A DNA stretch of 64,000 nt from Clostridia bacterium (GCA_044432645.1 JAWXUM010000008.1:1056-65055), one strand, 5' to 3'; positions 9,863 to 34,671 are shown, counted from the stretch's first letter. The notes: a model not told the origin generated them from the letters alone. A program made the numbers and translations.

Positions 9863-9896
9863 CTCAAAATTTGCTATGCTGTAAACAAAGAAAGAG
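9863..9896 (+). repeat. Cassette-boundary site, copy 1
   Basis: CTCAAAATTTGCTATGCTGTAAACAAAGAAAGAG. Confidence 0.85.
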
Positions 9897-9923
9897 AATT
9901 TATCTTCTTGATAGCATTTTTAA

Positions 9924-10394
9924 TTATTTTAAACCAAATTCAATCTTTAAAGAGTTATATCTATCTTTTTCATGTGGTGATACTTCAAAAAATGGATTAT
10001 ATATGCAGTGTTGCATAACGTCGGCATCAATTAAAACTTCATCAAAAGAGCTATGTTTTATACCTTTACTGCTGTGATTATATATTGCTGAGCATATTTG
10101 CTCTATTTCTTTTTCGGTGAATAAAGATAATTTTTGCAAGATTTCTTTCGCAATAACTGAGCCTTTGTGTGCGTGGTTTGTGCTGTCTAAAGTAGAATAA
10201 ATGTAAATGTCATGGAGCATTCCAGCAATAGTGGCGAGTTCCACATCTTCATTTCGTTTCATTGCAATTAACGTGCAAACTTGGGATACACCATATAAAT
10301 GAATGTAAGCAGCTCTTTTTTCTTCATTGTTTGGAATATTAAATATCACTTGGTCAACGTATTTTCTTACTTCTTCAATTCTATTCATAAGCAC
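9924..10394 (-). CDS. HD-domain phosphohydrolase
   Basis: 156 aa with H...HD motif (GMLHDIYIY). The track start is GTG. ATG at 10388 behind GAGGTG is the more likely start. Confidence 0.8.
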   Translation of the reverse strand: MLMNRIEEVRKYVDQVIFNIPNNEEKRAAYIHLYGVSQVCTLIAMKRNEDVELATIAGMLHDIYIYSTLDSTNHAHKGSVIAKEILQKLSLFTEKEIEQICSAIYNHSSKGIKHSSFDEVLIDADVMQHCIYNPFFEVSPHEKDRYNSLKIEFGLK

Positions 10395-10429
10395 CTCACT
10401 AAATTATATGTTAATTTTATTGCATGGCT

Positions 10430-10463
10430 CTCAAAATTTGCTATGCTGTAAACAAAGAAAGAC
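10430..10463 (+). repeat. Cassette-boundary site, copy 2
   Basis: CTCAAAATTTGCTATGCTGTAAACAAAGAAAGAC. Last base overlaps the stop codon of 10463-11035. Confidence 0.85.
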
Positions 10464-11035
10464 TATTTTCTAAGCTTATCATATTGCACAACAGTTTCAC
10501 CAGTTTTAAGATTAATTTTTTCTTTATATAATAAGGTATATCTTATCTGACCTTTGGTATAATCTCTGTTGGTTTTTGGAAAGAATGAGCGACAGAAATA
10601 TGTATTATCCTCATTTTTAGAAATAAATATGTAAATATCGTTAGATTCCAACGGAGTTGATAGTAAAAAATCGGCTTGAATAAACGAAAAGGCATTAATT
10701 TTTTCATTGTATCTAAAAACTAAATTGTTATTATCTAGGATTTTTTCAATGTTGGCAAGTGGGATAAATCTATCTTCAATTTGAGAAATAAACTCACTTG
10801 TAGATATTTTTGCATAAGTTAATTTGTTATTAATAATGTCTGTGAAAACCTTAAAACGATTTTGATTAGCAACTTCTAAATCTCTAAGTTTAACAAGACC
10901 CATTAAATGATGAAACTGTGAAGAAAGAAACCTAATTCTAAGTTCAATTTTTTCACCTTTTCGCCCTAAAACAATTTTGTATTCAGTATGGGTAAGATTT
11001 TCAAATGCTTTTGCACACGCCAATAGTTTGTCCAT
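10463..11035 (-). CDS. Putative PBECR4-like (barnase/EndoU/RelE-fold) nuclease, paralog A
   Basis: 190 aa with an FHHLMGL motif. Paralog at 34671-35243. The family assignment is from memory and is tentative. Confidence 0.55.
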   Translation of the reverse strand: MDKLLACAKAFENLTHTEYKIVLGRKGEKIELRIRFLSSQFHHLMGLVKLRDLEVANQNRFKVFTDIINNKLTYAKISTSEFISQIEDRFIPLANIEKILDNNNLVFRYNEKINAFSFIQADFLLSTPLESNDIYIFISKNEDNTYFCRSFFPKTNRDYTKGQIRYTLLYKEKINLKTGETVVQYDKLRK

Positions 11036-11228
11036 AAAATTCCTCTCTGTATAAAGAAAGTCGCCTTGCTTTCACAAGACGACTAACAATAGCGTTTTCT
11101 TTCGGTATTACTACCTACATCGGTTCGAGGTTGCCACTCAACCCATCCGTAGAGCTCCATACAACAAGGCGACCGATACCCCCTTGCATATCAACACTCA
11201 AACAGACACACAGTCGTTGCCTGTTGTT
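11036..11228 (-). ncRNA. Structured 5' leader RNA with intrinsic terminator (copy A)
   Basis: Promoter TTGACA-N17-TAATAT. Conserved 5' block, covarying helix (11172-11177 with 11119-11124). Terminator hairpin 11059-11084 plus U-run directly before the SD. Confidence 0.6.
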
Positions 11229-11234
11229 ATTATT

Positions 11235-11263
11235 ATATTACACTATTATAGCAAATATGTCAA
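11235..11263 (-). promoter_or_regulatory. Sigma-70-type promoter of leader A
   Basis: -35 TTGACA (11258-11263), 17-nt spacer, -10 TAATAT (11235-11240). Identical arrangement at 35439-35467. Confidence 0.6.
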
Positions 11264-11272
11264 CGAGTTTAG

Positions 11273-11302
11273 AAAAATTTGCTATGCTGTAAACAAAGAG
11301 AG
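11273..11302 (+). repeat. Cassette-boundary site, copy 3
   Basis: AAAAATTTGCTATGCTGTAAACAAAGAGAG, 5 nt from the stop codon of 11308-11607. Confidence 0.8.
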
Positions 11303-11307
11303 CTATT

Positions 11308-32421: not shown

Positions 32422-32521
32422 AATATTCTCCTTAACGCATTACCACTAGATTGAAGCTTCCAAAATGGCAAAAGAAATAGCTTCTATGATATCTCATACA
32501 ATCCAGATGATTATGCCTGTA

Positions 32522-32860
32522 TTATTTTTTCATTTTGTTCCTTCTTTCGATTACCGTATGTGCATAATCGTGAGTGGAAATAATCATATTACCAGGTTGA
32601 TTGACCGCCATCGTAGCAATTTATCGAAACATAAGGTTTTCGTTTTTGTCAATATCAATTGTCGATTCATAAAAACCGATAAAAGTATTACAGTTATGAT
32701 GCTTTTATATCTTAACAGTATGCTTACCCAGTACCACTTCAAATTCTTGATTAACAAGAGAAAGCTTACCGATATTTTCGTTATCAGTATCGAAGAAGAT
32801 ATCTTTGTCAAATGCTTCCATTTTTTGCTCGTTCCGACATGAAAACACTAACTTTGCCAT
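32522..32860 (-). pseudogene. Paralog of 31939-32421 with two in-frame TAA stop codons
   Basis: Reads MAKLVFSCRNEQ...HTVKI*KHHNCNTFIGFYESTIDIDKNENLMFR*IATMAVNQPG. Stops at 32705-32707 and 32621-32623 both align with Tyr in the intact paralog. Confidence 0.7.
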
Positions 32861-32878
32861 TTGCGTAAACATGGTCGC

Positions 32879-33283
32879 TCAAAGATTTTCAGCTAACGAT
32901 TTGAGTTCTTCAATTGGCATTTCCTTTCCTTGATATACCTTTGTTGTCTGAGCACTTCCAACTTCTTCAACCTTCATATAGACGGCACCTACATTTTTGC
33001 CACTAGCTTTTTTACCGATTGCATTAAACAGACCTGCCGTAGTTAGTACACTTGCTTTGTTGGAAGAAAATCCAGAAAGATCAGCTGTAGTGGCTGAGAG
33101 GATAGCTCCACACTTGTCACATAGGAAAAGTGTACGATTGCCCATCATTTCCATCTTATCTTTTAGTTTCCAATAAGGCTCATGTGTGCCACACATAGGA
33201 CATTTAGGAAATTTTGTGTCAATGAATTTCTGCGGGATACTACCAGAAAATCCATCGCATCGTCTAAAATCAAACATTCCCAT
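32879..33283 (-). CDS. Zinc-ribbon protein (CPMC...CDKC), first gene of the operon
   Basis: 134 aa. SD AAGAGG. Start lies 50 nt from the left inverted repeat of the invertible promoter. Confidence 0.65.
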   Translation of the reverse strand: MGMFDFRRCDGFSGSIPQKFIDTKFPKCPMCGTHEPYWKLKDKMEMMGNRTLFLCDKCGAILSATTADLSGFSSNKASVLTTAGLFNAIGKKASGKNVGAVYMKVEEVGSAQTTKVYQGKEMPIEELKSLAENL

Positions 33284-33333
33284 AATAATACCTCTTTCTT
33301 ACTTGATTTTTTGTATTATTAAATCAGCTATTT

Positions 33334-33518
33334 TCAAAATGTGTACTTTTTGATTATTGTTGGGAAGTAGTATTGGAATTTGATTTGTTTTTTTATGAAG
33401 ATAAAATCGAATAATTATACATAAAAAATTAACAGAATATTAAAAAAGTATTGACTTCAATTATTTATAGTGCTAAAATATTAATAATAAAACAGCTGTC
33501 AAAAAGTACACATTTTGA
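33334..33518. promoter_or_regulatory. Invertible promoter element (inverton) with Hin/Gin-type crossover sites
   Basis: Perfect 20-bp inverted repeats TCAAAATGTGTACTTTTTGA (33334-33353) and its complement (33499-33518) enclose 145 bp carrying a strong promoter. The half-sites resemble hix (ATCAAAAA). Confidence 0.75.
33451..33479 (+). promoter_or_regulatory. Promoter inside the invertible segment (currently facing right)
   Basis: TTGACT-N17-TGcTAAAAT (extended -10). Confidence 0.65.
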
Positions 33519-33524
33519 TAGCTG

Positions 33525-34139
33525 TTATTTTTTCTTTATATTATGTATTAATTTATATTCTCGAATTTTTCGGTAAAATGTTGCTTCGCTCATATTACAT
33601 TTTTCAAGGGCTTGCTCAAGACTCATTCTTTTTTCTTCCCAATTTTTTATTATTTTATCAAAGTCTTGCGGTATTGCCTTTTCTGGTCTACCGAATTTCA
33701 CCCCACGAGCTTTTGCTGCTGCTATTCCTTCTGCTTGACGTTTTTTGATATTTTCTCGCTCGTTTTGTGCAACGAATGATAAAATTTGTAATACTAAATC
33801 TGCAATAAATGTCCCCATTAAATCTTTGCCATTTCTAGTATCTAATAAAGGCATATCTATTACACAAATGTCAGCACCTATATCTTTGGTTAATATTTTC
33901 CATTGCGATTGAATTTCTTCATAATTTCTTCCAAGCCTATCTATACTTTTAATATAAATTAAATCGCCTAATTTTAATCTATTAACCATTTTTTTGTAGT
34001 TTTTTCTGTCAAAATCTTTACCACTTTGTTTATCAATAAAAATTTTATCGATTGATACAGAAATACTATTAAGAGCAATTATTTGCCTATCTTCATTTTG
34101 GTCAGTGCTAGAAACACGTACATAGCCATAATTTTTCAT
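33525..34139 (-). CDS. Small serine recombinase (Hin/Gin/Pin-type DNA invertase)
   Basis: 204 aa. [14 protein letters not shown] catalytic motif and a C-terminal HTH. The stop codon is 7 nt from the right inverted repeat. Confidence 0.88.
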
Positions 34140-34367
34140 AGTGTAACCTCAATATATATTTATTATAAATTAAAAGAACAAGTACGAATAACGAACTTGT
34201 TCTTTTAATTTTATTATATTCAATTTTACTGCACAATTGTAATTATTTTCAATTATCATTATATGTAAATCCTTTCGCTGTTATTAACAAACAAGAGTAT
34301 ATCATATTAATGTTATAATAGCTAGATTAATAATAAGACAATATTTATGAGTTTATTAGCTATAATA

Positions 34368-34637
34368 TTTTACAGTATCCAGTACCCTCGGTTCACATTC
34401 CCACCTTAAAAGCATATACCTGAACCTATGACCTTCGGGTTATGAGCTTTGCTATAAGCGCAAAATTCAGTGTTTATGGGAGTTTATAGCACTTTTTAGT
34501 CCATAAAATTGCCAAAAACCCGAGTGTCATTTCCACCCAGTCCACTGTTTCCGTCCCAGTTTTTCCTATTATGGGTCAAAACATGGGTCAAGCTTTAAAA
34601 GTAATAAAGTCTAGTTTGATTTTTAATAAAATAAGCT
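34368..34637 (+). repeat. U270 repeat, copy b
   Basis: Near identical to 9594-9862. Confidence 0.8.
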
Positions 34638-34671
34638 CTCAAAATTTGCTATGCTGTAAACAAAGAAAGAC
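34638..34671 (+). repeat. Cassette-boundary site, copy 7
   Basis: CTCAAAATTTGCTATGCTGTAAACAAAGAAAGAC, identical to copy 2. Confidence 0.85.

Follow-up and report, generated by a model that had tools for sequence, protein, structure and literature searches.

The 64,000-nucleotide stretch of Clostridia bacterium DNA analysed here (GCA_044432645.1 JAWXUM010000008.1:1056-65055; hereafter the window) is a tandem array of mobile elements. The end of a first element (E1) is followed by a serine-recombinase integrative and mobilizable element (IME1), a complete tyrosine-integrase element (E2), a second serine-recombinase element (IME2), and a third tyrosine-integrase element (E3) that continues beyond the window (Table 1). 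Self-comparison of the sequence recovers two related blocks approximately 23-24 kb apart, each of which opens with three minus-strand genes encoding a 554-aa large serine recombinase, a MobA/VirD2 relaxase, and MobC/NikA. E2 and E3 are sister integrative elements of a very large family whose tyrosine integrases have the 3' end of tRNA-Met as their target, and recurring within them is a 31-bp motif, designated M here, with the consensus TCAAAWTTTG-N4-GCTGTAAWCAAAGAAAG. An earlier note, made from the sequence alone, had treated 25 kb of this DNA as a single array divided into gene units by the motif; the interval in question (9863-34671) instead mixes three different elements, as it takes in E2, all of IME2, and the initial 250 nt of E3.

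Exactly seven sites in the window match M with zero to three mismatches, all of them on the plus strand, and none is expected by chance (100 shuffles), which bears out the series of seven same-orientation copies described previously. The spacer required correction, as it is 4 nt long and the N5 version of the consensus matches nothing. The consensus includes the variant GCAGTAAACAAAGAAAA. When both strands were scanned with a weight matrix built from the window copies and copies from other genomes, no further M of at least 12 bits was found; the segment at 35476-35502 is plausibly one decayed copy. M is without dyad symmetry and, when folded as single-stranded DNA, is no better than shuffled sequence (z-scores of -1.7 to +0.85), in agreement with the earlier statement that no attC-like palindrome is present. 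Readings of M as a Xer/dif-like, sigma-54, or IHF-like site were judged by eye and set aside for misfits of spacing or symmetry. As a separate observation, the reverse complement of M reads ..FFV-YSG(A/T)NF(D/E) in one frame and resembles the DDGYSGTNFDRP segment of large serine recombinases, and a recombinase gene found in five other loci (L038-L042; L038 6144-6188, minus strand) matches 16/16 conserved bases in the left two-thirds of M. This likeness may be coincidence, ancestry, or target mimicry.

The position of M relative to genes is as had been claimed. The stop codon of the HD-domain gene lies 27-29 nt past M, those of both PBECR4 nuclease-like genes 1 nt past it, and that of the DUF2442 gene 5 nt past it; the HAD and S51 genes lie downstream of the copies at 18748 and 22255, each with a TTGAAT-16-TATAAT promoter and an upstream TG. 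Units occur on either strand, and those containing HAD, S51, PBECR4 with its drum RNA, or toxin-antitoxin genes have promoter-like sites of their own, so that the description of M as delimiting compact accessory units with their own promoters stands. One copy overlaps the end of the integrase gene (int). As the C-termini of integrase homologues are not conserved, and the window integrase is 5-7 residues longer and reads into M, conservation of the motif lies at the DNA level and the overlap with int is incidental. The same variation among C-termini led us to reject M as the conserved 3' coding end of int, and most M copies follow short open frames.

Comparison of E2 with E3 places changes in gene content at M itself. 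E2 is ordered attL, P arm, M, HD unit, M, PBECR4/drum unit, and E3 is ordered attL, P arm, M, PBECR4/drum unit; the difference is a 567-bp HD unit with identical copies of M as its bounds, present in E2 and not in E3, which is a gain or loss exactly at the motif of the kind that the earlier note had proposed to look for. Identity between the two elements is 96.5% up to 5 nt past M and 78% beyond, and their homology stops at 11280 in E2 and 35484 in E3, after base 9 of the third M copy. The HAD and S51 units occupy different backbone positions (after DUF6809 and after int, respectively) and have in common the right-block variant GCTGTAATC of M and a 100-nt promoter leader (77% identity over 130 nt), but not the left block or the spacer. 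Together, the end of homology inside the third copy and the right block shared by the HAD and S51 units point to an exchange point between the two conserved blocks of M. A comparable border is seen in two other loci (L010 and L044), which have a 108-aa gene and M in common and in which homology ceases 4 nt past M. Homologues of the HD gene elsewhere (69-74% identity) are ordinary genes without M, which argues that the HD gene was captured; the idea that the HD unit is itself a travelling cassette was dropped, its ~70%-identical homologues being plain genes. M lies inside the E-type backbone, always in the same orientation and constrained in sequence, and marks the borders between backbone modules and cargo. 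With a confidence that falls a little short of even, we propose that cargo modules also enter, leave, and replace one another there through recombination between M copies, catalysed by a putative recombinase.

M is found well beyond the window. Exact-pattern scans located it, with unrelated flanks on both sides, in 16 unrelated contigs, six from species-representative genomes and ten from metagenomes. The named hosts are Acutalibacter, Oscillospiraceae, and Eubacteriales, with a GC content of 34-60%; the length of the spacer is fixed, and its sequence drifts to G+C in GC-rich hosts. Weaker copies are present in every family element examined. M sits at module borders, either downstream of a gene for a relaxase, xis, or int or a short way into the P arm: 3 nt past the relaxase stop in L018-L020 and L009, in L016 7 nt past the stop of a MobL relaxase unrelated to these, 12 nt past xis in L028-L037, directly past int in L014 (twice) and L024 as in the window, and 70 nt inside the P arm in L017. 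In the cultured Vescimonas fastidiosa MM35 (pMM35_01), which has the motif in the region around 41-44 kb of NZ_AP023416.1, one M lies before int and another 190 nt past the P' arm. The multi-copy, same-orientation arrangement recurs, with two or three copies, always co-oriented, in L002, L008, L010, L014, and L043. Sets of near-identical elements are invariant at M. The motif is a nucleotide-level hallmark of the tRNA-Met integrase family in Oscillospiraceae and their relatives. Megablast of the element against plasmids and a scan of viral contigs for M returned nothing, and full-text literature searches for the M sequence, DUF6809, DUF6550, and DUF6076 likewise returned nothing and no description of M.

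Table 1. Mobile elements, M copies, and gene modules of the window (positions counted from its first nucleotide).
Feature	Position	Strand	Remarks
E1 end	1-197		
IME1	198-9647	-	Serine-recombinase mobilizable element in tRNA-like att core, GA at both junctions
IME1 genes	recombinase 245-1909, relaxase 2248-3579, MobC/NikA 3624-3929	-	Cargo: oxidoreductase, ABC-2
E2	9645-23449	+	13.8-kb tyrosine-integrase element, distal half-core (9645-9670) to proximal half-core (23428-23449)
P arm of E2	9755-9814	+	Two TGGGTCA repeats (9796, 9808); homologous to attL-side arm of L009
M1	9864-9894	+	49 nt inside P-arm repeats of E2; left border of HD unit
HD-domain gene	9924-10394	-	Sole content of 567-bp M-bounded unit
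M2	10431-10461	+	Identical to M1; right border of HD unit, left border of PBECR4/drum unit
PBECR4/drum unit	10463-11199	-	PBECR4 nuclease-like gene 10463-11035 and drum RNA 11087-11199; M-bounded
M3	11272-11302	+	Degenerate left block (GAAAAATTTG); E2/E3 homology stops inside, at 11280
Large cargo/backbone unit	11308-18696		DUF2442/DUF4160, Phd antitoxin, LytTR regulator and kinase, two ABC transporters, 79-aa gene, split DUF6809
M4	18748-18778	+	~50 nt past split DUF6809 gene; left border of HAD unit
HAD hydrolase unit	18779-19886	+	Leader 18779-18874, 77% identical to S51 leader
M5	19887-19917	+	Terminator-like hairpin before; ~320 nt upstream of xis
Recombination module	20241-22275	+	AlpA/HTH_17 xis 20241-20480, HTH_36 20513-20827, 74-aa gene, tyrosine integrase 21106-22275
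M6	22255-22285	+	Contains integrase stop codon; left border of S51 unit
S51 peptidase unit	22286-23050	+	Leader 22286-22381, gene 22409-23050
P' arm of E2	23139-23207	+	Three ATGGGTCA repeats
IME2	23450-34423	-	Sister of IME1, at same GA of att core
IME2 genes	recombinase 23497-25161	-	SHOCT-domain paralogues, DUF6076, small resolvase 33525-34139
E3	34421-64000, runs past window end	+	Half-core 34421-34446, P arm 34531-34590, M7, PBECR4/drum, 28-kb cluster, 79-aa/DUF6809 backbone 63803-64000
M7	34639-34669	+	In E3; counterpart of M1/M2 without HD unit
Possible decayed M copy	35476-35502	+	GAAAAATTT / TGAGTTAAAAAATACTGG, where E3 ceases matching E2

The site at which these elements integrate was defined from the genomic contexts of six integrase homologues together with the M-bearing contigs. 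The attachment (att) core of the family is the last ~45 nt of the tRNA-Met gene (TGGTTGCGGGnGCAGGAyTTGAACCnACGACCTyCGGGTTATGAG), which is intact in L009, L017, L018, and L028-L037; the P' arm, CCCGTATGGGTCA-N4-ATGGGTCA, lies directly past int, and the P arm, TTCCACCC...TGGGTCA-N5-TGGGTCA, ~110 nt inside attL. In the window the core is split into a proximal half, TGGTTGCGGAGATAGGGATTGA, at 176-197 and 23428-23449, and a distal half, TGAACCTATGACCTTCGGGTTATGAG, at 9645-9670 and 34421-34446; the halves join to give the family core, and what separates them is each time a serine-recombinase element. P-type arm repeats also occur in E3 at 34572/34584, and the junctions of E1, E2, and E3 thus carry tRNA-Met core halves and P/P' arms, as in tandem accretion, which is seen at tRNA-Met in L029-L035 and L017 as well. 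An Rfam scan of the window returned two drum RNAs only and no tRNAs. The integrase contains Phage_int_SAM_3 and Phage_integrase domains, belongs to a family of ~7,985 clusters (90% identity) that match it with E < 1e-30 at about 70% identity, and is 61-73% identical to >100 homologues among the matches listed; the clusters come mostly from gut and anaerobic-digester metagenomes, with Oscillibacter, Dysosmobacter, and Pseudoflavonifractor among named members. Integrase identity, arm repeats, and core are accordingly all common to the window and the tRNA-Met-targeting family.

These results bear on whether M could be the regenerated att site of serial integration, as had been suggested, or else, on an integron-like platform served by the 21106-22275 integrase, its attC/attI. 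Such a role would suit the same-orientation direct repeats that bound units, the integrase gene that ends within an M copy, and the tandem elements common in the tRNA-Met integrase family, but we give it scarcely any credence. Serial integration did happen, at the tRNA-like core rather than at M: the seven copies all lie inside E2 (six) or E3 (one) and none at an element end, and M is therefore not an att site. M had also been considered as the att core itself on account of the arm repeats 49 nt upstream of the copies at 9864 and 34639; these belong to the attL-side P arm, and the half-core lies ~125 nt further left. The closest solved relative of the integrase is the heterobivalent Tn1549 Int (E 1e-18), its match to IntI4 being weak and partial (residues 308-364, E 2.5e-6). 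The window resembles integrons in that compact single-gene units, a repeated site in one orientation that abuts stop codons, and a unit present or absent between copies are features of both. Unlike integrons, the window has neither an IntI-type integrase nor attI; M is a fixed, asymmetric 31-bp sequence, whereas attC is an imperfect palindrome that folds as a single strand and in which the R/L boxes alone are conserved; the units have their own promoters and lie in either orientation, where integron cassettes are mostly promoterless and co-oriented; and the platform is itself mobile, with several insertion positions.

The main rival to module exchange gives M some other cis-acting role in the backbone, for example that of an operator, of an insulator or terminator, of a site for an architectural protein, or of a site related to replication for the proteins HTH_36, xis, or DUF6809. 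Breakpoints would then fall at M through homologous recombination, this being the sole stretch conserved between elements that have otherwise diverged. This is possible, although we hold it to be on the unlikely side. It is in keeping with the bipartite layout and strict 4-bp spacer, as in protein-binding sites, with the occurrence of M on both sides of the attP region, and with the single copies of L018, L028, L009, and L016, which occupy fixed spots beside a xis, int, or relaxase gene. A terminator is suggested more particularly by L005, L011, L016, and L024, in which the right block precedes a hairpin and the opposite strand has a stem followed by CTTTCTTTGTTT, the layout of an intrinsic terminator, but no hairpin adjoins the window copies in this way, and M is not consistently placed as a promoter on either strand. 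Left unexplained would be the tight single-gene units (567 bp and 446 bp) with full M flanks and no backbone remnants, as well as six copies in one 13.8-kb element, and 31 bases are a marginal substrate for RecA-type exchange. An origin of transfer (oriT) was weighed alongside. If M were the nick region for a helper relaxase, a start at one copy and an end at the next could release or transfer the intervening segment in a cassette-like manner, and relaxase-mediated recombination between oriT copies is established for other plasmids. M begins 3-10 nt past the relaxase stop in L018 and L016, and E2, which has no relaxase of its own, must be mobilised somehow. We consider this improbable all the same, as a canonical candidate (an inverted repeat with ACCCCT) is present upstream of nikA/mobC in L018, L028, IME1, and IME2, one and the same M comes after relaxases of two families without kinship (PF03432 and MobL), no inverted repeat adjoins it, and several direct oriT copies would fragment the transfer of the element. 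IMEs that target oriT nick sites are known, and the Streptococcus agalactiae IME_oriT (PMC5704250) is an earlier example of recombination directed at a short cis site that diverged mobile elements have kept in common; its target is however the nick site and the incoming DNA a complete IME with its own tyrosine integrase, whereas the M units are single cargo genes. M is probably not an oriT.

Returning to module exchange at M, the crossover would fall in or beside the unconstrained 4-bp spacer, and each block of M, left or right, would move together with the unit on its own side. By this route a circle containing one M and one gene would enter a resident M and regenerate the motif on both sides. 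As a speculation, the first candidate for the enzyme is the integrase that these elements always carry, which would act on a secondary core-type site devoid of arms. A tyrosine integrase was previously thought to be the only plausible partner, but other recombinases are present; the two large serine recombinases (245-1909 and 23497-25161) and the small resolvase (33525-34139) had been overlooked, as had the TGGGTCA arm repeats and the division of the tRNA-like att cores into halves. Several points weigh against exchange of this kind. Apart from the one comparison of E2 with E3, neither a circle nor an empty site came to light as a recombination product, and no variation at M was seen within the near-identical sets L028-L037 and L018-L023. 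M lacks both a fold and the dyad usual for the crossover sites of tyrosine or serine recombinases, and the family integrase has another, well-defined core in tRNA-Met and needs arms that are missing at most M copies. Many elements have a single M, whose primary function may be a different one; cargo blocks of 7.4 kb and 28 kb far exceed cassette size; and homologous recombination might in principle take place, if rarely, across 31 identical bases.

When placed among known systems, the elements of the window are of familiar kinds. There are established cases (PMC5704250) of tandem accretion, of cis-mobilizable elements (CIMEs), and of IMEs directed at cis sites within other elements, and E1, E2, and E3 resemble the tandem accretion of ICESt1/ICESt3 (PMC5704250) in being head-to-tail tyrosine-integrase elements separated by a tRNA-derived core with arms. 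The M-bounded units of the window carry neither att cores nor arm sites at their flanks and so do not qualify as CIMEs; accretion accounts for the succession of elements but not for M. Two further systems invite comparison, the check made here being that of the symmetry of M. The hotspots of SXT/R391 integrative and conjugative elements likewise hold cargo at a few fixed borders of a conserved backbone but have no shared boundary sequence. Acinetobacter plasmids contain pdif modules, each bordered by a short and conserved site of recombination much as the units here are by M; pdif sites are, however, Xer-type 11-6-11 dyads in alternating orientation, whereas M is always co-oriented and without Xer-like symmetry. 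As read from its sequence and context, M would thus add to the idea of cargo hotspots or cassette boundaries, its function being a proposal.

IME1 and IME2 were each inserted at the same GA in the tRNA-like core that joins two tandem E elements, and they represent an element type that targets the attachment site of another element family. Their ends are 27-bp imperfect terminal inverted repeats (22/27) with a GA dinucleotide at both junctions (junction regions 176-198, 9614-9670, 23428-23481, and 34390-34446), and the 554-aa recombinase has Resolvase, Recombinase, Zn_ribbon_recom, and DUF4368 domains. In their large serine recombinase they are similar to Tn4451/Tn5397 (TnpX/TndX-like), the DUF4368 C-terminus, imperfect terminal inverted repeats, and GA junctions being noted for the IMEs; they differ in having a MobA/VirD2 relaxase with MobC/NikA and in occurring twice at one specific site, the tRNA-like att core. 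Serine-recombinase elements that target GA are established. M was rejected as the attachment site of these IMEs, whose ends lie 215 nt to the left of the copies at 9864 and 34639, in the tRNA-like core. The element with a 55%-identical recombinase (L038-L042) has no M at its ends, and the serine recombinase beside M in L003 proved unrelated to the IME enzyme (28% over 96 residues).

Some other features of these IMEs were observed. A candidate oriT, composed of a GC-rich inverted repeat followed by ACCCCT(T/A), lies upstream of mobC/nikA (3964-3988 and 27215-27229, both on the minus strand; L018 ~7930-7975; L028 ~7850-7895) and is common to the serine-recombinase IMEs and to tyrosine-integrase IMEs with a PF03432 relaxase. 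The xis promoter region of E2 (20151-20211) is 84% identical, in inverted orientation, to 4223-4283 upstream of the IME1 62-aa gene and mobC, and a regulatory segment is thus common to two unrelated element types. IME2 contains three tandem paralogues that end in a SHOCT domain (29526-31911, minus strand; 70-72% nucleotide repeats) and, near its right end, a 204-aa small serine resolvase (33525-34139, minus strand).

Within E2 and E3, two drum RNAs (RF02958) were identified at 11087-11199 and 35293-35403, both on the minus strand, scoring 82.5 and 87 bits where the gathering score is 43. They lie directly upstream of the PBECR4 nuclease-like genes at 10463-11035 and 34671-35285, and each has a TTGACA-17-TAATAT promoter and a terminator between RNA and gene (in E2, a terminator-like hairpin at 11084-11059 on the minus strand). 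An unexplained association with a nearby protein was noted in the original description of drum (PMC5737381). The DUF6809 gene of E2 (18248-18696) is split into pieces of 38 aa and 45 aa by ~195 nt of unrelated sequence (18365-18558), and when joined the pieces match PF20648 (E 1.4e-14). A 53-nt repeat (75-79% identical) occurs at 19562-19614, 19961-20013, and 63741-63793, with the inverted repeat CTAGGT...ACCTAG internally, around TAAGGGTAAGACACC. The M copy at 19887 is followed after 44 nt by one of these repeats, another lies before the 79-aa/DUF6809 genes of E3, and there is a loose similarity to the ACCCTTA of the candidate oriT. Between the left-end module of E3 and its 79-aa/DUF6809 backbone lies, at 35485-63680, a 28-kb cluster with sulfatases, GH31 and GH2 glycosidases, a GLAA-B-like protein, and AraC regulators. 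As the sequence that follows (63680-64000) is the same 79-aa/DUF6809 backbone that precedes the M copy at 18748 in E2, this polysaccharide-utilisation cluster is probably cargo of E3.

The tRNA-Met integrase family moves restriction and defence systems, toxin-antitoxin pairs, and transporters, and here apparently also a 28-kb polysaccharide-utilisation cluster. A bolder proposal, which we regard as doubtful, is that M is a dedicated cassette-recombination site and that these elements are multi-port gene-capture platforms of gut Clostridia, in which circles composed of M and a promoter-bearing gene are inserted and excised at several backbone copies of M, either by the heterobivalent integrase acting without arms or by an enzyme not yet recognised. 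If true, the cassette system would be a functional analogue of the integron with an unrelated and unstructured site. Were M to prove regulatory or architectural, one of the major classes of mobile DNA in the gut would still have in it a cis element that is under strong constraint and unannotated. If, on the other hand, one 31-bp site governs the entry and exit of cargo, the mosaic structure of these elements would be explained, M would offer a simple sequence handle by which to delimit cargo in metagenomes, and Firmicutes would have a route of gene capture that is integron-like in its working without being an integron.

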